Shown: in pieces, positions 12,802 through 24,691 of the stretch | Layout: each line of letters begins with the position of its first letter | How positions within the stretch are numbered: position 1 is the first letter of the stretch | Assembly: GCA_963677575.1 (NCBI GenBank) | Contig: OY782038.1 | Span: 1,916,195 to 1,980,194, forward strand | Direction: 5' to 3' | DNA from: an uncultured Draconibacterium sp. | GTDB lineage: Bacteria > Bacteroidota > Bacteroidia > Bacteroidales > Prolixibacteraceae | DNA length: 64,000 nucleotides | Made by a program: the position numbers and the translations under genes | The notes under the pieces: generated by a model | The model's input: the letters and a program-made list of their open reading frames with translations, nothing else | The model's database searches: none | What the model was told of the DNA's origin: nothing

Positions 12802-12831
12802 AAAAAAGGCCGACATTTGTCGACCTCTTTT
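12802..12831 (-). terminator. terminator-like hairpin after tRNA-like element A; also faces the convergent peroxidase gene
   Basis: AGGTCGAC-AAAT-GTCGGCCT followed by a T tract on the minus strand. Confidence 0.65.
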
Positions 12832-12832
12832 G

Positions 12833-12907
12833 TGGGGAGTACTGGATTCGAACCAGTGACCCTCCCGATGCAAATCGGGATGCTCTGAACCAATAAGCTA
12901 AAACCCC
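12833..12907 (-). ncRNA. tRNA-Val-derived tRNA-like element A (no canonical anticodon arm)
   Basis: D arm, variable loop, T arm and 3' acceptor strand match the neighbouring tRNA-Val; anticodon arm is TCCCGAT-TTGC-ATCGGGA. Confidence 0.8.
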
Positions 12908-13143
12908 TCTATCAATTTCAGAATTGCACTTCTACTTTTCCAGTTTTTAAGTTGCATTTCACGTTTAATTGCATCACTTTTTTCTCCAAAAGTTTCATAA
13001 TATTTTAACTCCCATGGTTTCCCGGTTGACGTAAATCCTTTGTTAGATGAGTTATGACGCTGCAAGCGTCCTTCAACATCACTTGTAGAACCAATATAGA
13101 ATTTATTTAGTTTCTCTGAATACAAAATATAACAGTAATACAT
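12898..13143 (-). CDS. small GIY-YIG nuclease, intact copy A (81 aa)
   Basis: YCYIL..YIG motif, conserved Arg (RLQRH) and Glu (KRE); ATG start. Confidence 0.9.
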   Translation of the reverse strand: MYYCYILYSEKLNKFYIGSTSDVEGRLQRHNSSNKGFTSTGKPWELKYYETFGEKSDAIKREMQLKNWKSRSAILKLIEGF

Positions 13144-13157
13144 GATATTAAAATACG

Positions 13158-13187
13158 AAAAAAGGCCGACATTTGTCGACCTTTTTT
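13158..13187 (-). terminator. terminator-like hairpin after element B
   Basis: AAGGTCGAC-AAAT-GTCGGCCTT followed by a T tract. Confidence 0.6.
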
Positions 13188-13188
13188 G

Positions 13189-13264
13189 TGGGGAGTACTG
13201 GATTCGAACCAGTGACCCTCCCGATACAAATCGGGATGATCTGAACCAACTAAGCTAAAACTCC
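13189..13264 (-). ncRNA. tRNA-like element B
   Basis: as element A; anticodon arm TCCCGAT-TTGT-ATCGGGA; one D-stem mismatch. Confidence 0.8.
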
Positions 13265-13500
13265 TCTATCAATTTCAGAATTGCACTTCTGCTTTTCCAT
13301 TTTTTAAGTTGCGCTTCGCGTTTTATTGCTTCACTTTTTTCCTCAAAAGCTTCATAATATTCTAACTTCCACGGTTTTCCAGTTGATGTAAATCCTCTAT
13401 TTGAATTATTATGTCGTTGTAAACGACCTTTCACGTCTCCCGTAAAACCAATATAGAATTTATCTAGTTTCTCTGAATACAGAATGTAACAGTAATACTT
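13255..13500 (-). CDS. GIY-YIG nuclease copy B, start codon mutated (ATG to AAG); possible pseudogene
   Basis: 66/81 aa identical to copy A; the only nearby in-frame start is TTG 13515 at the end of the hairpin T tract. Confidence 0.75.
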   Translation of the reverse strand, partial: KYYCYILYSEKLDKFYIGFTGDVKGRLQRHNNSNRGFTSTGKPWKLEYYEAFEEKSEAIKREAQLKKWKSRSAILKLIEEF

Positions 13501-13513
13501 GACATTAAAATAC

Positions 13514-13544
13514 AAAAAAAGGCCGACTTTTGTCGACCTTCTTT
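13514..13544 (-). terminator. terminator-like hairpin after element C
   Basis: AAGGTCGAC-AAAA-GTCGGCCTT followed by a T tract. Confidence 0.6.
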
Positions 13545-13545
13545 G

Positions 13546-13621
13546 TGGGGAGTACTGGATTCGAACCAGTGACCCTCCCGATACAAATCGGGATGATCTG
13601 AACCAACTAAGCTAAAACTCC
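13546..13621 (-). ncRNA. tRNA-like element C
   Basis: same sequence as element B. Confidence 0.8.
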
Positions 13622-13856
13622 TCTATCAATTTCAGAATTGCACTTCTGCTTTTCCATTTTTTAAGTTGCGCTTCGCGTTTTATTGCTTCACTTTTTTCCT
13701 CAAAAGCTTCATAATATTCTAACTTCCACGGTTTTCCAGTTGATGTAAATTCTCTATTGAATTATTATGTCGTTGTAAACGACCTTTCACGTCTCCCCTA
13801 GAATCAATATAGAATTTATCTAGTTTCTCTGAATACAGAATGTAACAGTAATACAT
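13612..13856 (-). pseudogene. GIY-YIG nuclease copy C, frameshifted
   Basis: 245 nt versus 246 nt; 1-nt deletion near 13757 relative to copy B; YIG changed to YID. Confidence 0.88.
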
Positions 13857-13869
13857 GACATTAAAATAC

Positions 13870-13900
13870 AAAAAAAGGCCGACTTTTGTCGACCTTCTTT
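13870..13900 (-). terminator. terminator-like hairpin after tRNA-Val copy 2
   Basis: same sequence as the hairpin at 13514-13544. Confidence 0.65.
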
Positions 13901-13901
13901 G

Positions 13902-13976
13902 TGGGGAGTACTGGATTCGAACCAGTGACCCCCTGGGTGTAAACCAGGTGCTCTGAACCAACTGAGCTAACCCCCC
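13902..13976 (-). tRNA. tRNA-Val(UAC), copy 2
   Basis: full cloverleaf: GGGGGGT/ACTCCCC acceptor, GCTC/GAGC D stem, CCTGG-TTTACAC-CCAGG anticodon arm, ACTGG-TTCGAAT-CCAGT T arm. Confidence 0.97.
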
Positions 13977-14013
13977 AATATTTAAAAAATCATTAACAGT
14001 AATGAAGCACATT

Positions 14014-14044
14014 AAAAAAGAGGTCAATCAAAATTAACCTCTTT
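14014..14044 (-). terminator. terminator-like hairpin after tRNA-Val copy 1
   Basis: AAAGAGGTTAAT..ATTGACCTCTTT followed by a T tract. Confidence 0.6.
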
Positions 14045-14046
14045 CG

Positions 14047-14121
14047 TGGGGAGTACTGGATTCGAACCAGTGACCCCCTGGGTGTAAACCAGGTGCTCTG
14101 AACCAACTGAGCTAACCCCCC
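14047..14121 (-). tRNA. tRNA-Val(UAC), copy 1
   Basis: identical 75-nt cloverleaf to copy 2. Confidence 0.97.
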
Positions 14122-14170
14122 AATATGCTATTTCTGTTTCTGAACGCACCCCCTTTTCAGTAAGGCGCTG

Positions 14171-14178
14171 CAAATATA
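14171..14178 (-). promoter_or_regulatory. -7 promoter element for the tRNA-Val transcript
   Basis: TATATTTG matches TAnnTTTG, about 50 nt upstream of tRNA copy 1. Confidence 0.6.
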
Positions 14179-14220
14179 AAACCTATTTTCAGTTCTGCAA
14201 AAATTTTTTCAAGATTTTTC

Positions 14221-15525
14221 TCAAAGCACTTCTGCTACCACAAACGTGCTGCCTCCTACAAATATCATATCCGTTTTATCTGCAACAAGTTGAGCTTTCA
14301 CGTAAGCCTCGTTTACTGACGAATACACCTCCCCTATCAAACCAAACTCTTTGGCCCTTTTGGCCAACTCGTCTGCATCCATAGCTCTTGCAATGTCAGC
14401 TTTTACAAAATAGTACTTCGCCTGTTTGGGTAAAAGTGCCAAAACTTTCCCCGGATCTTTATCGCCAACAGTGCCAAAAATAAAATGCAACTGCTTGTAA
14501 GCCGTATTTTTCAGTTGCTGAACAATCGATTTAATTCCATCTTCATTGTGCCCTGTATCGCAAACCGTTAACGGATTATTGCCAATCACCTGCCATCGCC
14601 CCAATAACCCGGTATTTGTTACTACATTTTTCAGTCCTTCTCGCAAATTATCTTCTGTAATTTTATAATCCTTTTTATTTAAAAGATCAACGGCTTTTAG
14701 TACGGCCGGAATATTTTTATGCTGATATTGCCCCAATAAATCCAAGACCAATTCAGTATAAACGTCCTCCCCCTCCTTTTGCACATTGAGTTGTTGTTTG
14801 CCATCCATGCTCAACATTGAATACGCAACATTGTATTCCTGATCAGAGAAATAAATTGAAGTATCTACTTCTTGCACTTTTTCATTGAAAACCGGAGTTG
14901 TTTCTTTTTGTGTTGTTCCAATAACCACCGGAACGTCCTTTTTGATGATTCCGGCTTTTTCTCCTGCGATTTTCTCCAAGGTATCTCCAAGAAGGTTGGT
15001 ATGATCCAAACCAATATTGGTAATAATACTCACATCGGGCGTAATAACATTGGTAGAATCAAGTCGCCCGCCGAGCCCAACTTCCATTACTGCCACATCA
15101 ATTTCCTTATCGGCAAAATAATCGAATGCCATAGCAACCGTCAGTTCGAAAAATGAAGACTGGATTTTCCACAAATTATTGTTAATTATAAAATTACTCA
15201 CCCAGTCAACCACCTCCGATTCCGGAATCATTTCGCCATCAATTTTTATCCGCTCACGAAAATCTTTCATGTGTGGAGACGTATACAATCCCGTTTTATA
15301 TCCCGCCGCCTGAAGTACCGATGCCAGCATATGCGAAACCGATCCTTTCCCATTCGTTCCGGCAACGTGGATTGTTCGGTATTTCTGATGCGGATGACCA
15401 TAATATTCATCCAGTTTCAAAGTATTTTCCAGGGTGTTTTTGTAGGCAGCCGGCCCAGTTCGCTGAAACATAGGCAACTGACTAAACAGGTAGTATAAAG
15501 TAGCTTTGTAATCCAATGAATTCAA
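14221..15525 (-). CDS. folC: folylpolyglutamate/dihydrofolate synthase
   Basis: HVAGTNGKGS, YTSPH, EVGLGGRLDSTN, CDTGHN. Confidence 0.95.
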   Translation of the reverse strand: MNSLDYKATLYYLFSQLPMFQRTGPAAYKNTLENTLKLDEYYGHPHQKYRTIHVAGTNGKGSVSHMLASVLQAAGYKTGLYTSPHMKDFRERIKIDGEMIPESEVVDWVSNFIINNNLWKIQSSFFELTVAMAFDYFADKEIDVAVMEVGLGGRLDSTNVITPDVSIITNIGLDHTNLLGDTLEKIAGEKAGIIKKDVPVVIGTTQKETTPVFNEKVQEVDTSIYFSDQEYNVAYSMLSMDGKQQLNVQKEGEDVYTELVLDLLGQYQHKNIPAVLKAVDLLNKKDYKITEDNLREGLKNVVTNTGLLGRWQVIGNNPLTVCDTGHNEDGIKSIVQQLKNTAYKQLHFIFGTVGDKDPGKVLALLPKQAKYYFVKADIARAMDADELAKRAKEFGLIGEVYSSVNEAYVKAQLVADKTDMIFVGGSTFVVAEVL

Positions 15526-15616
15526 TATTTATTAACTATTGCAAGTTTATTAATTTTTGGCTCATCAGACCCTATTTCTGACGAATTTATCTACATTTAG
15601 AACAAATCATTTATAT

Positions 15617-16948
15617 ATGCTGAGTAAAACCAAAAAGAGTAAAATTTTCGTTCTTGACACGAACGTAATTTTACACGATCACACATGTATTTACCAGTTC
15701 CAGGATAACGACATTATCCTTCCGATTACAGTACTCGAGGAGCTGGACAAATTTAAACGAGGAAACGACCTTATCAACTTTCAGGCACGCGAATTTACCC
15801 GGGTGCTTGATGAAATTGTTGGAGATGACATTTTTAACGGCGGGAAATCGCTTGGTGTAGGAAAAGGCCGCATACGAATTGAAACGGGCAAACCATTCTC
15901 GGATGAGTTAAAAGCTTCGTTTCGTGAGGATATCCCCGATCATAGAATCCTGGCGATCGCAGATTTTACCGCAAAAGCTTATCCGCGTCGAAAAACAGTT
16001 CTGATCAGTAAAGACATTAACCTTCGGATGAAGGCCAAGTCGCTGGGCATTCAGGCTGAAGATTACAAAACCGACCAGGTAACCGACGAGAATGTACTGG
16101 ATAAAACCATTACAACTTTCGATAATTTTGACGATATGGTTATCGATCAACTTTATCAACAAGGTTCGTTTGCAAAAGCCGATGTTAAAGATTTTACACC
16201 CGATGCGAACGAGTGTTTTATTTTCAGAGGCAACCAATCGAGTGCACTGGCGCGATACGACAACAAATCGGAGCGCGTTTACCGTGTAGAGAAAAAATCG
16301 GCTTACGGCATTAAACCACGAAATGCCGAACAGACTTTTAGTTTGAATATGCTGATGGATCCGGAAGTACGACTAATGGCGCTTACCGGAAAAGCAGGAA
16401 CCGGAAAAACATTGTTGGCACTGGCTGCCGCAATAGAGCAACACCGCCAGTACGAACAGATACTTTTAGCCCGCCCAATTGTAGCATTAAGTAACCGAGA
16501 CATTGGTTATTTGCCCGGTGATGCGAACGAAAAGATCAATCCATACATGCAGCCGCTTTTCGATAACCTGGCTGTAATTAAGCATACTTTCAACCCACGA
16601 AGTAACGAGTACCAGCTTATTGAAGAGATGGTAAAAGATGAAAAACTGAACATCACACCTCTGGCATACATTCGTGGACGAAGTTTATCGAATGCATTCT
16701 TCATTATAGATGAAGCGCAAAACCTTACTCCGCACGAAATAAAGACCATTATTACACGTGCCGGCGAAGGAACAAAAATGGTATTCACCGGCGATTTGTG
16801 GCAGATCGACTCGCCTTACCTCGATATGAAATCGAACGGGCTGGCGTACATGGTAGACCGCATGCGCAACCAGGAATTGTTTGCACACATTAATTTGGTG
16901 AAAGGCGAACGAAGTTACCTGGCCGAACTGGCTAGTAACTTATTGTAA
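15617..16948 (+). CDS. PIN domain + PhoH-like ATPase (PhoH2 type)
   Basis: VLDTNV PIN motif, GKAGTGKT Walker A, RGRS, IDEAQN, GDLWQID. Confidence 0.9.
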   Translation: MLSKTKKSKIFVLDTNVILHDHTCIYQFQDNDIILPITVLEELDKFKRGNDLINFQAREFTRVLDEIVGDDIFNGGKSLGVGKGRIRIETGKPFSDELKASFREDIPDHRILAIADFTAKAYPRRKTVLISKDINLRMKAKSLGIQAEDYKTDQVTDENVLDKTITTFDNFDDMVIDQLYQQGSFAKADVKDFTPDANECFIFRGNQSSALARYDNKSERVYRVEKKSAYGIKPRNAEQTFSLNMLMDPEVRLMALTGKAGTGKTLLALAAAIEQHRQYEQILLARPIVALSNRDIGYLPGDANEKINPYMQPLFDNLAVIKHTFNPRSNEYQLIEEMVKDEKLNITPLAYIRGRSLSNAFFIIDEAQNLTPHEIKTIITRAGEGTKMVFTGDLWQIDSPYLDMKSNGLAYMVDRMRNQELFAHINLVKGERSYLAELASNLL

Positions 16949-17117: not shown

Positions 17118-18422
17118 ATGGATTACAAGGGGAAGAAAGCTGCTTTTTACACATTAGGCTGTAAACTTAATTTTTCAGAAACGTCGACCATTGCCGGTTC
17201 CTTTAAAGAAGTTGGTTTTGACCGTGTTGAGTTTGATGAAAAAGCCGATGTGTACGTGATTAACACCTGTTCGGTTACCAACCAGGGAGATAAGGCCAGT
17301 CGTAATATTGTGCGCAAGGCCGTAAAACAAAATCCTGATGCTATGGTAATTGTGGTAGGTTGCTACTCGCAGCTAAAACCAGACGAAGTAGGACACATTG
17401 AAGGTGTTGATATGGTACTCGGTACTCAGGAAAAGTTTCATATTCCGCACTACCTTGGCGATCTGCAAAAACGCGAAACTACCGAGATTAAAACAACGCG
17501 TTTAGCCAATATAAAAAATTACCATAAAGCATTTTCGTGGGGCGACCGCACACGCAGTTTCCTCAAAGTGCAGGACGGTTGCGATTATTACTGTTCGTTT
17601 TGTACCATTCCGTATGCACGAGGACGAAGCAGAAACGACAACATCGTTAATACGGTTAAAGAAGCACAAAAATCCGTTCAGAAAGGATACAAAGAAATTA
17701 TACTTACCGGCGTAAATATTGGCGACTTCGGTAAATCAACCGGCGAGAATTTTCTTGATTTATTGAAAGCCCTGGAACAGGTCGATGGCTTGGAACGACT
17801 GCGTTTAGGATCGATTGAACCCAACTTGCTAAAAAATGAAATTATCGAGCTGGTATCCAGCTCGAAAGTCATTATGCCGCATTTCCACTTGCCTTTGCAA
17901 TCGGGCTCCGATGAAATCCTGTCGTTGATGAAACGAAAATATTCCACCGATTTGTACCGAAAAAGAGTGGAGCGTATTCGCGAAATCGTACCCCATGCTT
18001 TTATTGGTGTTGATGTAATAGCAGGTACAAACGGCGAAACCGAAAAATATTTCCAGGAATCGTTCGACTTCCTTAACAGCCTCGAAATCTCGCAATTACA
18101 TGCTTTTACCTACTCTGAAAGAAGTGGAACGCAGGCGCTGAAGATTCCGTGGAAAGTAGATGTGGAAGAACGCAAAAACCGTACACAGAAATACATCAAT
18201 CTATCGGAGAAAAAGCTGCGCGCTTTTTACGAGAAACATATAGAATCAGAACAAACAGCACTTTTTGAGGCGCAGAAAAGCCAGGATAATATGCATGGTT
18301 TTACTGAAAACTACATAAAAGTTGAGGTTCCTTATCAGAAAGAGCTGGTAAATAAGCTGGGCAGCGTAAAATTAAAGTCAATTCTGCCAAACGGTAGCGT
18401 TTCTGTAGATTTTATCGCCTGA
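17118..18422 (+). CDS. mtaB: tRNA t6A methylthiotransferase MtaB
   Basis: TLGCKLN, NTCSVT, radical SAM CDYYCSFC. Confidence 0.92.
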   Translation: MDYKGKKAAFYTLGCKLNFSETSTIAGSFKEVGFDRVEFDEKADVYVINTCSVTNQGDKASRNIVRKAVKQNPDAMVIVVGCYSQLKPDEVGHIEGVDMVLGTQEKFHIPHYLGDLQKRETTEIKTTRLANIKNYHKAFSWGDRTRSFLKVQDGCDYYCSFCTIPYARGRSRNDNIVNTVKEAQKSVQKGYKEIILTGVNIGDFGKSTGENFLDLLKALEQVDGLERLRLGSIEPNLLKNEIIELVSSSKVIMPHFHLPLQSGSDEILSLMKRKYSTDLYRKRVERIREIVPHAFIGVDVIAGTNGETEKYFQESFDFLNSLEISQLHAFTYSERSGTQALKIPWKVDVEERKNRTQKYINLSEKKLRAFYEKHIESEQTALFEAQKSQDNMHGFTENYIKVEVPYQKELVNKLGSVKLKSILPNGSVSVDFIA

Positions 18423-22047: not shown

Positions 22048-22106
22048 GTCTTCTTTGTGATTCTCTTTTTGTCAATTCAAAAATCCGTTATAACTTTGTC
22101 CCGATA

Positions 22107-22197
22107 TTTACGCAATGGGGTGTCCCGATAAAGCATCGGGACTGAGATTATACTCAAAGAACCTGATCCGGTTAGCACCGGCGTAGGGAGAGCGAAA
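22107..22197 (+). ncRNA. TPP riboswitch
   Basis: GGGGTG..CTGAGA..ATAC...GAACCTGATCCGGTTAGCACCGGCGTAGGGA aptamer core; boundaries approximate. Confidence 0.9.
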
Positions 22198-22215
22198 AGG
22201 ATTTGTTCCTACCTC

Positions 22216-22241
22216 ATTGGTTAGTTTATTAACCAATTTTT
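22216..22241 (+). terminator. riboswitch expression-platform terminator
   Basis: ATTGGTTA-GTTTAT-TAACCAAT-TTTT between the aptamer and ATG 22250. Confidence 0.7.
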
Positions 22242-22249
22242 CAAAAGAA

Positions 22250-24691
22250 ATGAGAAGACTTAGTTTAATGCTGCTGTTGCAATTGATGGCAGTAATTGCT
22301 TTCGGGCAAATTAATTTAACAGGCGTTGTTAAAGGAGATGGAGAAGCTTTGGCCGGTGCCAGCGTGGTAATCGAAAAATCGTTTTATGGCGTATCGACCA
22401 AAGCCAACGGAGGTTTTGAATTTAAAAACCTGAAACCGGGCGATTACACTTTGCTGGTTTCGTTTATCGGTTTCGAACCACAAAAGATCGAGCTTCAACT
22501 TTCTGCAAGTAAAAACATTGAAGTAAACCTGAAGCCCAACGTAATTATGACCGATGAAGTGTTGATTTCGGCAACACGCGCCGGTAATAAAACACCGGTT
22601 GCCTACAACAATGTTTCAAAAGAACAGCTAAAAAGCCAGAACCTGGGACAAGACATCCCGTACCTGCTACAACTAACACCTTCGTTTGTGGCAACTTCTG
22701 ATGCGGGTGCAGGTGTGGGGTACACCAATTTCCGTATCCGTGGAACAGATTTGAACCGTATCAATGTTAGCATAGACGGTATCCCTATTTCAGAATCAGA
22801 ATCGCACGGAACCTGGTTTGTTGACATTCCGGATTTGGCATCATCGCTTGAGAATGTACAGGTTCAGCGTGGTGTTGGAACATCAGCTAACGGAGCAGCT
22901 GCTTTCGGTGGCTCTATCGACCTGCAAACCAACACCCTGAATAAAGAACCTTCTGCCGAATACCGCATGTCGGTTGGTTCTTTTAACACCTTAAAAAACA
23001 CTGTTTCGGCAGGAACCGGACTGATTGACGGGAAATTTACATTCGATGTTCGTTTAAGTAAAGTAAAATCAGACGGCTATGTCGACCGTGCTTACTCTGA
23101 TTTGAAATCATTCTTTGTTTCGGGAGGCTACTATTCAAAAAAATCGGTCTTAAAAATTAATATTTTCTCTGGTTTGGAAGAAACTTACCAGTCGTGGTGG
23201 GGTGTTCCGTCGGTGCGTTTAAACAACGATATGGAAGGAATGCAGCGCTACGAAGACCACTGGCTGTACTCGCACGAAGAAACCCAGCACATGATAAATT
23301 CTGATAGTCGCACCTACAATTATTATACTTACGACAACCAGATTGACCACTACCAACAAGATTATTACCACCTGCATTTTTCGCATCAGTTTAACGAGTA
23401 CCTGCACCTGAACACAGGATTGCATTACCGTCGCGGTCGTGGTTATTACGAGAACTACAAGAGTGATGAAGATTTTGAAGATTACCAATTGCCCTACCCG
23501 GTAGTGGGAAATGACACTGTTTTTTCAACCGACCTGGTAAATCGCAAATGGCTTGATAATGACTTTTACGGGATTGTTTTTGCCTTGAACTATAAAAAAG
23601 ACAGGGCCGACTTTACTTTAGGCGGCGGTTGGAATACTTACGACGGTGATCATTTCGGAAATATTATTTGGGCTGAATATTTGGGCAATACAGCTACAAA
23701 CTACGAATGGTACCGCGGAAACGGCTTAAAGAAGGATCTTAATTTTTACGGAAAGTTCAGCTACCAACTGGCAAAGAAATTAAATGTTTATGCCGATTTA
23801 CAATACCGCAACATCAACTATAAAATTACAGGGATCAATGACGATTTGAGAAACATTGCACAGGAACACAACTACAATTTCTTTAACCCGAAACTGGGTG
23901 TATTCTACCAGCCAACGGATAACCAGAAAGTGTATCTTTCGTTTGCTGTAGCTAACCGCGAACCGAACCGCGACAACTTTGTAGATGCCGATCCGAACGG
24001 AAAACAACCGGTACACGAAACCTTACACGACTGGGAAATGGGGTACAACTTTCAATCTTCAAATTTTACAGCAGGAGCCAATTTGTATTTTATGAATTAC
24101 AAAGACCAACTGGTTTTAACCGGCGAAATAAACGATGTGGGTAGCGTAATTTTGCTAAATGTTGACAAAAGTTACCGAGCCGGATTGGAGCTTCAGACTG
24201 GTTGGCAGATTTCGCCGACACTGCAATGGAATGCAAATGCTACTATTAGTCAAAATAAAATAAACGATTTTGTTGAATATGTAGATGATTGGGATACCGG
24301 CGGACAGCAAGTATTTGAACTGGGAACTACCGATTTAGCCTTCTCCCCCAACTTTATCGGAAACAGCCAGATACTGTTTACTCCATCTAAGAACTTTTCA
24401 ATTAGTTTGATTTCGAGTTATGTTGGTAAACAATACATCGACAATACATCAAACAACGACAGAGTGATTGATGCCTATTTTGTAAACAATATGAAAGTTG
24501 ATTATAGCATTAAAACCGGTTTCTTCGATGAAATTGTTTTGCACTGTATGGTAAATAACCTGTTTAACGAAGAATATGAATCGAACGCCTGGGTGTATTC
24601 CTACTTTCTCGGTGGAGAACGCTACAAACAAGACGGTTATTTTACACAGGCAGGAGTACACTTTATGTTTGGAGTAGACTTCTCTTTTTAA
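22250..24691 (+). CDS. TonB-dependent receptor, probable thiamine uptake
   Basis: signal peptide, CarboxypepD-like domain, plug (IRG..RINV.IDG.P), terminal aromatic residue; lies under a TPP riboswitch. Confidence 0.88.
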   Translation: MRRLSLMLLLQLMAVIAFGQINLTGVVKGDGEALAGASVVIEKSFYGVSTKANGGFEFKNLKPGDYTLLVSFIGFEPQKIELQLSASKNIEVNLKPNVIMTDEVLISATRAGNKTPVAYNNVSKEQLKSQNLGQDIPYLLQLTPSFVATSDAGAGVGYTNFRIRGTDLNRINVSIDGIPISESESHGTWFVDIPDLASSLENVQVQRGVGTSANGAAAFGGSIDLQTNTLNKEPSAEYRMSVGSFNTLKNTVSAGTGLIDGKFTFDVRLSKVKSDGYVDRAYSDLKSFFVSGGYYSKKSVLKINIFSGLEETYQSWWGVPSVRLNNDMEGMQRYEDHWLYSHEETQHMINSDSRTYNYYTYDNQIDHYQQDYYHLHFSHQFNEYLHLNTGLHYRRGRGYYENYKSDEDFEDYQLPYPVVGNDTVFSTDLVNRKWLDNDFYGIVFALNYKKDRADFTLGGGWNTYDGDHFGNIIWAEYLGNTATNYEWYRGNGLKKDLNFYGKFSYQLAKKLNVYADLQYRNINYKITGINDDLRNIAQEHNYNFFNPKLGVFYQPTDNQKVYLSFAVANREPNRDNFVDADPNGKQPVHETLHDWEMGYNFQSSNFTAGANLYFMNYKDQLVLTGEINDVGSVILLNVDKSYRAGLELQTGWQISPTLQWNANATISQNKINDFVEYVDDWDTGGQQVFELGTTDLAFSPNFIGNSQILFTPSKNFSISLISSYVGKQYIDNTSNNDRVIDAYFVNNMKVDYSIKTGFFDEIVLHCMVNNLFNEEYESNAWVYSYFLGGERYKQDGYFTQAGVHFMFGVDFSF

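Follow-up and report, generated by a model that had tools for sequence, protein, structure and literature searches.

A proposed nuclease–hairpin module embedded in the tRNA operons of Bacteroidota

The stretch of 64,000 nucleotides from an uncultured Draconibacterium sp. that we have analysed (contig OY782038.1; the whole stretch is called the window below) carries, on the minus strand between positions 12,802 and 14,201, a tandem array in which genes for a small GIY-YIG nuclease alternate with tRNA-like elements behind a pair of tRNA-Val genes. Comparison with related loci indicates that the array represents an ancient, chromosomally resident module of Bacteroidota and not a recent insertion. 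In the tRNA-like elements the anticodon arm of the local tRNA is replaced by a hairpin whose outer stem is the same from locus to locus. As a tentative explanation, we favour a nuclease resident in tRNA operons along with hairpin repeats that would be its cognate sites and on which it would act in DNA.

The layout is that described in an earlier note made from the letters of the window: one promoter, tRNA-Val, hairpin, tRNA-Val, three units and a final hairpin were all found (Table 1). The promoter is the sole match in the region (12.8–14.2 kb) to TTTG-N19-TATATTTG, a pattern that we take to be the Bacteroidetes promoter consensus. The units are spaced by 356, 357 and 356 nt, and each consists, in this order, of a terminator-like hairpin with a T-run, a GIY-YIG open reading frame (ORF) and a tRNA-like element. 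They are 85–94% identical to each other, and a 31-nt block (GGGTCACTGGTTCGAATCCAGTACTCCCCAC) comprising the variable loop, the T arm and the 3′ acceptor strand does not differ at all, as the note had stated, between the five copies of tRNA or tRNA-like element. The identity of this block in units whose ORFs have diverged to a dS of 0.78 indicates, on the face of the sequences, either ongoing gene conversion or constraint.

The tRNA-like elements exceed the Rfam threshold for tRNA (32.9–46.6 bits against 29), the real tRNA-Val scoring 71.2 bits, and in a covariance scan of the region with Rfam 15 at permissive thresholds only RF00005 (tRNA) was above threshold, the rest being chance-level matches to small RNAs. 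In their predicted fold, an arm of 7 bp with a 4-nt loop stands in place of the 5-bp stem with a 7-nt loop, 4–5 of the 7 acceptor pairs form (pairs read by eye), and ARAGORN gives them a 2-base ‘anticodon’. Because of the altered arm and the poor acceptor pairing we regard them as pseudo-tRNAs. Their T and D arms are kept and they fold as cloverleaf-like RNAs (z about −5).

The replacement arm has the form TCCCG(A)...(T)CGGGA, with 7–8 bp and a loop of 3–5 nt, and TCCCG-N(6–12)-CGGGA is found at the anticodon-arm position in 90/109 units. The real tRNAs at these loci have CCTGG/CCAGG, CCTGC/GCAGG or ACTGC/GCAGT stems. In the window the motif TCCCG-N(3–14)-CGGGA is observed four times against 0.34 expected, and three of the four are the pseudo-tRNAs; a chance origin of the window hairpins is excluded. 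The fourth (22123–22141) falls in an unrelated TPP riboswitch (22106–22206, plus strand, 67.4 bits), which precedes an 824-residue ORF (22217–24691). Among 37 aligned elements none departs from the five outer pairs, which is so by construction, the elements having been chosen for holding the motif; the next two pairs covary (AU in 31 and GC in 6, UA in 28 and CG in 8). Over 185 distinct arms the extension pairs are Watson–Crick in 172/185 and 148/160 cases. The last 28 nt of the local tRNA are repeated ~65–70 nt past the ORF in 37/57 loci, Val and Arg loci included, with 0–3 mismatches and mostly none, from which we conclude that the T arm and 3′ acceptor strand, and in most cases the D arm too, follow the adjacent tRNA.

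Three other descriptions of the hairpin were considered and set aside. The unpaired centre is mostly 3–5 nt and only 14/189 arms are palindromic to the centre, so that a hairpin fits better than a double-stranded DNA palindrome bound by a dimer. Nor does it appear to be a foreign, copy-pasted insert: the loop and inner pairs are frequently like those of the neighbouring tRNA (the anticodon loop is TAC-type at Val loci and TCT-type at Arg loci), and they differ between loci of one contig. A dispersed element resembling a repetitive extragenic palindrome (REP) was rejected as well, since the hairpin is not scattered and nearly all locus matches outside the arrays are more pieces of pseudo-tRNA.

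The element and the gene overlap physically. The TAG stop codon of the window ORF is U8-A9-G10 of the tRNA-like element, and the stop codon lies within the pseudo-tRNA in 53/59 loci. Some homologues (P0057, P0077, P0110; L008, L009, L017, L022) end in ...GSGHPG/D, the translation of GGTTCAGGGCATCCCGG, because the ORF runs on through the D arm into the hairpin.

Some variants of the element were seen at other loci. At L012 and L013 the stem has the variant form TTCCGA. Many elements carry a further TCCCGA...TCGGGA hairpin within the T-loop or immediately behind it (L021 1490–1530, L004, L007, L010, L014, L036, L045, L049, L052, L057, L059, L063 and L068), which implies that the hairpin can replace more than one arm. 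At L153 (1790–2180, minus strand) a pseudo-copy of tRNA-Asn has a hybrid arm, TCTGACT-GAAA-AGTCGGGA, with the native 5′ strand and a hairpin-type 3′ strand, possibly an intermediate or a recombinant. ARAGORN labels pseudo-tRNAs as Lys, Cys, ‘Stop’(tta), SeC or Gln (L002 3237–3312, L001 462–539, L034 282–357, L051 3238–3313, L028/L073), and in public genomes they are probably entered, wrongly, as unusual tRNAs. Numerous metagenome contigs terminate in pseudo-tRNA repeats.

The three 81-codon ORFs reported in the earlier note proved to be of unequal state. The distal one (unit C) is intact, the middle one (unit B) lacks its ATG and the proximal one (unit A) is frameshifted. The S19F change in the middle copy is at a column invariant in the family, and this copy is probably decaying. 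The B and C products are identical at 66/81 residues, the value given in the note (64 of 78 aligned residues plus 2 of the last 3). Against the Pfam GIY-YIG profile (PF01541, cut-off 22.6 bits) copy C scores 69 bits and copy B 68.1, and the fragment of copy A, at 20.8, is below the cut-off. The motif residues Y5, Y16, R26, H30 and E62 are invariant in an alignment of 25 relatives. An AF2 model of the 81-residue protein has a pLDDT of 94.5 and the secondary structure E-E-H-H-E-H-H. A profile of the family, run against structures, finds UPF0213 first (1zg2, 1.7e-6; 1ywl, 4.4e-6) and SLX1 next; Foldseek with the model gives the same order, 1zg2 and Slx1 being nearest and I-TevI and UvrC more distant. 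The score against TIGR01453 is 21.7 bits, where the cut-off is 56. By profile and predicted fold the protein is a minimal stand-alone nuclease of the Slx1/YhbQ type, with its motif residues intact and no DNA-binding extension: the 81 residues are entirely catalytic domain, and the C-terminal DNA-binding module of homing endonucleases is not present.

The ratio dN/dS is 0.04–0.13 overall, 0.04–0.09 against Draconibacterium orthologues at dS >1, and 0.12 between window copies C and B. These values point to strong purifying selection, that is, to a long-resident, selected gene.

A genome scan for relatives of the nuclease gave at least 79 loci in Bacteroidota and neighbouring groups, with the closest homologues in Draconibacterium. 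The earlier note had suggested searching for small GIY-YIG ORFs abutting tRNA genes in other genomes, and the layout does recur: the same-strand tRNA 5′ of the first ORF is tRNA-Val(TAC) at 57 of the 79 loci, at 48 of them within 120 nt. At a further eight loci, in Chitinophagaceae/Chitinophagales, it is tRNA-Arg(TCT), and at one locus each it is tRNA-Lys and tRNA-Glu; no same-strand upstream tRNA was found at 12, and at eight of these the ORF lies where the contig ends. All loci but one (78/79) have the hairpin, in some cases in a degenerate form. The exception, L077, is from a Candidatus Paceibacterota metagenome-assembled genome (MAG), where the nuclease relative follows tRNA-Glu. Another relative, L060, is labelled as from an Actinomyces viscosus MAG and has the full hairpin and tRNA-Val context, which suggests that it is mis-binned.

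At 39 loci, some of them in Flavobacteriaceae, the array is immediately preceded by a folC orthologue, and the order folC/tRNA-Val/GIY-YIG is kept from Prolixibacteraceae to Flavobacteriaceae. Pairwise identities of the nuclease and of folC are correlated with a Mantel r of 0.76, a value reached in 0/2000 permutations. Because nuclease divergence tracks folC divergence, the module is taken to be old, and its descent is mainly vertical, without classical mobility. No relative was found when viral contigs were scanned with the family profile.

Within this stable setting the number of copies varies. Two or more near-full-length copies are present at 15/79 loci (two at nine, three at three, six at two and seven at one). 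Draconibacterium congeners with the same flanking genes have 1, 2 or 3 ORF units, all after a Val-Val pair: one at L200/L201 (whose flanks are 87% identical in nucleotides), one plus two ORF-less pseudo-tRNAs in D. mangrovi, two plus one ORF-less unit in D. sediminis, three in the window, of which one is intact, and three of 470 bp in D. halophilum (L202, CP048409.1, 2390–3810). The D. halophilum units are equal in length and spacing, at least two of their ORFs encode exactly the same protein, and the two hairpin pseudo-tRNAs within each unit differ from one another (TCCCGATTGCGATCGGGA and TCCCGGTTATAATCGGGA); such near-identity of the units points to recent expansion. Comparison of unit number between relatives had been proposed in the note, and its idea of a module of nuclease and structured element, expressed by way of a tRNA gene and amplified locally, is borne out by the recurring layout and the varying copy number.

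The second tRNA-Val may have a related origin. The spacer between the two tRNA-Val genes of the window (13977–14045) looks like a unit stripped of its ORF, with a 24-nt relic of the ORF start left; a relic of the ORF start is also seen at L200 (2468–2531). The second tRNA-Val may be what remains of a unit that lost its ORF and had its pseudo-tRNA restored, by conversion, to a real tRNA. Tandem pairs of tRNA-Val are frequent among these loci.

At some loci, arrays of 5′-half pseudo-tRNAs with the invariant hairpin (2–4 units, period 74–107 nt) lie directly 5′ of the real tRNA, after the presumed promoter (L027 2683–2900; L073 2625–2900; L050 2425–2670; L144 1–340; L199 7300–7500). The window itself has no upstream array of this kind.

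The hairpin is also found apart from the nuclease. A metagenome scan for GAGCA-TCCCG...CGGGA-GGGTC gave at least 120 loci. Among the matches listed, the motif sits in partial tandem duplicates of tRNA-Val(TAC), tRNA-Ala(TGC) in rRNA spacers, and the Met(CAT), Asn, Lys, Ala(GGC) and Thr tRNAs; the nuclease is in cis at 6 of the 27 hairpin loci that are flanked on either side by 1 kb of sequence or more, and at 0/17 hairpin loci next to tRNA-Ala(TGC) in rRNA spacers. Duplicates 5′ of the real tRNA retain the leader and the 5′ half, and those 3′ of it retain the 3′ half and the trailer. All of the pseudo-tRNAs lie within tRNA or rRNA transcription units and are read in the sense direction, and where the nuclease lineage has a Met, Arg, Asn or Lys tRNA as its neighbour, hairpin copies are present as well. 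One locus without the nuclease, L116, encodes a protein with a sorting domain of the type IX secretion system, so at least some of the nuclease-less loci are from Bacteroidota. Match L163 was discarded as a real high-GC tRNA-Pro(TGG), and L100 and L191, also high in GC, are probably unrelated. On a short contig, L122 (150–1121), hairpin pseudo-copies of both tRNA-Lys(TTT) and tRNA-Pro(TGG) lie in a repeated Pro-Arg-Lys cluster, and the inner hairpin sequences differ between the two.

Four features make the resident nuclease with its hairpins the best fit: the asymmetry by which each nuclease locus except L077 has a hairpin, yet many hairpin loci lack a nuclease; descent that is vertical; purifying selection; and the footprints of local recombination. 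The nuclease gene is probably expressed from the tRNA promoter by read-through of the terminators. Its cognate site would be the hairpin, on which it would act when the hairpin is extruded as DNA in the heavily transcribed tRNA operons, and the resulting nicks or breaks would be repaired from the adjacent tRNA copy. Such repair would keep the D-arm, T-arm and acceptor flanks of the pseudo-tRNA identical to the local tRNA by gene conversion, would create and delete tandem units and partial tRNA duplicates, with a change in copy number, and would perpetuate the nuclease gene. Arrays would arise by unequal recombination between tRNA and pseudo-tRNA, which share at least 31 nt and the terminator. 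The hairpin pseudo-tRNAs found at other tRNA loci would be non-autonomous and depend on the nuclease in trans, in the way that REPs depend on RAYT. Action on DNA is preferred because all characterised GIY-YIG enzymes are, to our knowledge, DNases and because Slx1 cuts such structures. Enzymes of the Slx1 family cleave branched and stem-loop DNA (PDB 6seh, 7cq4).

Several observations weigh against this explanation. The nuclease is absent in cis from many hairpin loci, among them 12 of the 17 Val(TAC) loci in the matches listed. The 81-residue catalytic domain has no obvious module for recognising a sequence. Non-Watson–Crick pairs in the stems show no bias between strands (G.T against A.C), so the stems do not separate action on DNA from action on RNA. 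The scheme gives no account of how copies of different tRNAs come to share the outer stem and yet keep local inner pairs and loops. Vertical descent and purifying selection, finally, fit a host function equally well as a persistent selfish one.

A module that works in RNA is possible, if less probable. A stable pseudo-tRNA would be made from the tRNA operon and its hairpin would bind the nuclease, as a decoy or antitoxin in the manner of type III systems or as a partner directed at tRNA-Val; cleavage of the pseudo-tRNA by RNase P would sever the mRNA before the stop codon and so limit nuclease synthesis. The uniform sense orientation in tRNA and rRNA transcription units, the retained T and D arms with their cloverleaf-like folds, and the placing of the stop codon inside the tRNA-like element all agree with it, as do the many loci that have 2–4 tandem hairpin units, a tRNA, a terminator and a nuclease ORF (L027, L050, L073, L144). 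The nuclease family also has an independent link to tRNA-Val(UAC) through the COG4123 methyltransferases, which we take to be TrmN6/YfiC. In prokaryotes, Slx1-like GIY-YIG genes occur as fusion or operon partners of COG4123 methyltransferase genes, and once of TrmH (PMC1564403), and TrmN6/YfiC methylates A37 (m6A37) of tRNA1Val(cmo5UAC) (PMC4119055). Set against these points are the DNase activity of the GIY-YIG enzymes that we know of, a protein that is not ToxN-like, and the lack of upstream repeat units in the window. Moreover, the stems are not enriched in G.U pairs, the hairpin loops are not stable RNA tetraloops, and matches to the PADLOC defence profiles are weak and span stretches of ~35 residues (best E 4e-4), with no convincing family among them.

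It is rather doubtful that the parts are uncoupled, that is, that a housekeeping nuclease is co-transcribed with tRNA-Val and passively duplicated by unequal crossing-over, the hairpins being a separate feature of the operons, for example in processing or insulation. Descent with the folC locus under strong purifying selection is what a housekeeping gene would show, and most hairpin loci, among them every listed one at tRNA-Ala(TGC), have no nuclease in cis. The near-universal hairpin at nuclease loci argues the other way, and the architecture of hairpin and pseudo-tRNA has accompanied the nuclease lineage to tRNA-Arg, Met, Asn and Lys. The ORF and the pseudo-tRNA overlap at most loci, and pseudogene copies together with fast changes in copy number would be odd for a plain housekeeping gene.

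A mobile element of the homing type, cutting unit-free tRNA genes, copying itself in and spreading between genomes, is improbable. GIY-YIG is a classic homing-endonuclease fold, direct repeats of the 3′ end of the target tRNA flank the unit, at Arg loci too, arrays and pseudogenes are common, and the host tRNA has switched in particular lineages. However, the protein of 81 residues has no DNA-binding domain, no relatives were found in viral contigs, nuclease divergence follows that of folC, dN/dS is about 0.05–0.1 over dS >1, and an intact tRNA stays beside the element. The suggestion in the earlier note of a self-propagating element that targets tRNA genes is not upheld as far as horizontal spread is concerned: the gene is syntenic, tracks folC and is constrained.

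More improbable still is a reading in which the pseudo-tRNA transcript serves as a guide or scaffold, its hairpin binding the GIY-YIG protein and its tRNA-derived segment, the same in sequence as the local tRNA, directing it to the matching tRNA gene, where a cut would lead to gene conversion by which the unit is copied or maintained. Hairpin pseudo-tRNAs that stand without an ORF beside other tRNA genes would act as additional guides, and the whole would be a tRNA-scaffolded, RNA-guided GIY-YIG system with a logic like that of the omega-RNAs of TnpB/IscB.

Tandem repeats of ~356 bp can in principle be mis-assembled, but an assembly artefact or an insignificant one-off local duplication is refuted by the mutual differences between the window units and by the same architecture in dozens of independent assemblies, including the complete genome or chromosome records CP048409.1, CP195160.1, OY781961.1 and OY969556.1.

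Table 1 Features of the array in the window, in the direction of transcription
Feature	Position	Strand	Details
Bacteroidetes-type promoter match	14171–14201	−	5′ of tRNA-Val copy 1
tRNA-Val(TAC) copy 1	14046–14121	−	Rfam 71.2 bits
Terminator-like hairpin and T-run after tRNA-Val copy 1	14014–14045	−	13-bp stem in fold of 14012–14127; diverged version of the unit hairpin
24-nt remnant like GIY-YIG ORF start, in Val1–Val2 spacer	13994–14017	−	83% repeat-family match and alignment
tRNA-Val(TAC) copy 2	13901–13976	−	Identical to copy 1; Rfam 71.2 bits
Terminator-like hairpin, unit A	13871–13900	−	With T-run
GIY-YIG pseudogene, unit A	13612–13856	−	G18D, T20R, 1-nt deletion, stop after 45 codons
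Pseudo-tRNA, unit A	13545–13621	−	Rfam 32.9 bits; invariant hairpin 13576–13593
Terminator-like hairpin, unit B	13515–13544	−	With T-run
GIY-YIG copy, unit B	13255–13500	−	ATG to AAG, S19F; Pfam 8.5e-19; TTG at 13515 gives an 86-residue ORF (13255–13515)
Pseudo-tRNA, unit B	13188–13264	−	ARAGORN, Rfam and fold; invariant hairpin 13219–13236
Terminator-like hairpin, unit C	13158–13187	−	With T-run
Intact gene for 81-residue Slx1/UPF0213-type GIY-YIG nuclease, unit C	12898–13143	−	Pfam 4.2e-19
Pseudo-tRNA, unit C	12832–12909	−	Overlaps ORF stop codon; Rfam 46.6 bits; invariant hairpin 12863–12880
Closing terminator-like hairpin	12802–12831	−	Array end

A folC-like gene (14221–15525, minus strand) precedes the promoter match, and the closing hairpin faces a convergent gene for glutathione peroxidase (gpx). 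The neighbourhood further contains genes for a PhoH/PIN protein and a SpoIIE phosphatase, among others. The first of these, encoding a PIN domain and a PhoH-like ATPase (15557–16948, plus strand), is divergent from folC and is followed by a gene for a radical-SAM methylthiotransferase of the MiaB/RimO type (17118–18422, plus strand); the pairing of PhoH/PIN with folC is retained in relatives within Draconibacterium. In agreement with the earlier note, no integrase, transposase or reverse transcriptase was found within ~6 kb on either side of the array.

Minimal Slx1/UPF0213 nucleases of the YhbQ type are widespread in bacteria, and we know of no function assigned to them. Here one subfamily has a fixed genomic partner throughout the phylum, namely a tRNA gene together with tRNA copies that share the same substituted stem, and this partner provides a concrete candidate for the substrate, the TCCCGA/TCGGGA hairpin. 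The pseudo-tRNAs form an unannotated class of repeat in the tRNA and rRNA operons of Bacteroidota, one that confuses tRNA finders and breaks metagenome assemblies. If the nuclease acts on the hairpins, this would be a new partnership of nuclease and repeat or a control circuit of RNA and protein on a tRNA scaffold, and may also be a mechanism by which tRNA genes are duplicated and homogenised.

The note had known of no named system with such an architecture, and none was found in Rfam, PADLOC, NCBIfam or the literature searched. The NCBIfam profiles gave nothing above cut-off for the nuclease. Full-text searches on GIY-YIG with tRNA, pseudo-tRNA, Bacteroidetes, YhbQ and tRNA-Val found no account of the layout; the sole paper containing both ‘GIY-YIG’ and ‘tRNA-Val’, on Tn7/Tsy (PMC10293859), is unrelated. 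What is new here is the constant outer stem TCCCG/CGGGA in the anticodon arm of pseudo-tRNAs that copy the D arm, T arm and 3′ acceptor strand of the local tRNA, and the presence of such hairpin-bearing pseudo-tRNAs beside many other tRNA genes with no adjoining nuclease gene. Both of these had been overlooked in the earlier note, along with the defects in two of the ORFs.

The system would appear to lie outside the known kinds, since the features by which homing endonucleases, integrative islands, type III toxin–antitoxin systems and REP–RAYT are defined are missing from it; the function proposed for it is inferred from anatomy and comparative genomics. It resembles integrase islands in tRNA genes in that the unit lies between direct repeats comprising the T arm and 3′ acceptor (31 nt in 5/5 window copies). 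It differs in having no adjoining tyrosine or serine integrase or recombinase, units of 356 bp, a downstream repeat that amounts to an almost complete pseudo-tRNA with a replaced stem, and partial copies 5′ of the tRNA as well. With the GIY-YIG homing endonucleases (T4 Seg, I-TevI) it shares the catalytic fold, a small gene beside a conserved target and flanking homology to that target, but its protein has no C-terminal DNA-binding domain, has no relatives found in phages or introns, is inherited vertically and in synteny rather than patchily, and is nearest to Slx1/UPF0213 and not to I-TevI. The type III toxin–antitoxin system ToxIN has, like many of the related loci, a promoter, tandem structured repeats, a terminator and a small nuclease gene. 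The nuclease here is GIY-YIG and not of the ToxN fold, however, a functional tRNA lies between repeats and terminator, and in the window the repeats are 3′ of the ORFs.

Three further comparisons concern tRNA operons, the nuclease family and hairpin repeats. In the distal repeats of the E. coli tyrT operon (tpr/rtT RNA) tandem units with a tRNA 3′ end and a small ORF, subject to unequal recombination, follow the tRNA genes much as they do here, but tyrT has neither a nuclease nor an invariant hairpin, and no match to RtT was listed in the Rfam scan of the array region. The UPF0213/Slx1-like genes found with COG4123 (TrmN6) in Firmicutes belong to the same minimal nuclease family and have the same genomic link to the biology of tRNA-Val(UAC); the partner there is a tRNA-modifying enzyme, whereas here it is a tRNA gene with its pseudo-tRNAs. 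In REP–RAYT, the RAYT protein is a relative of HUH/Y1 (TnpA-IS200-like) transposases, whereas Pfam finds only GIY-YIG here, and REPs are dispersed in ordinary intergenic regions, whereas the hairpin here is almost confined to tRNA-derived copies in tRNA and rRNA operons. Common to the two are a single, vertically inherited nuclease gene flanked by short hairpin repeats, which here would be cognate to it, and long persistence under purifying selection; the hairpins are also seen here at loci that lack the gene, and may, as in REP–RAYT, lie elsewhere in a genome that has it.

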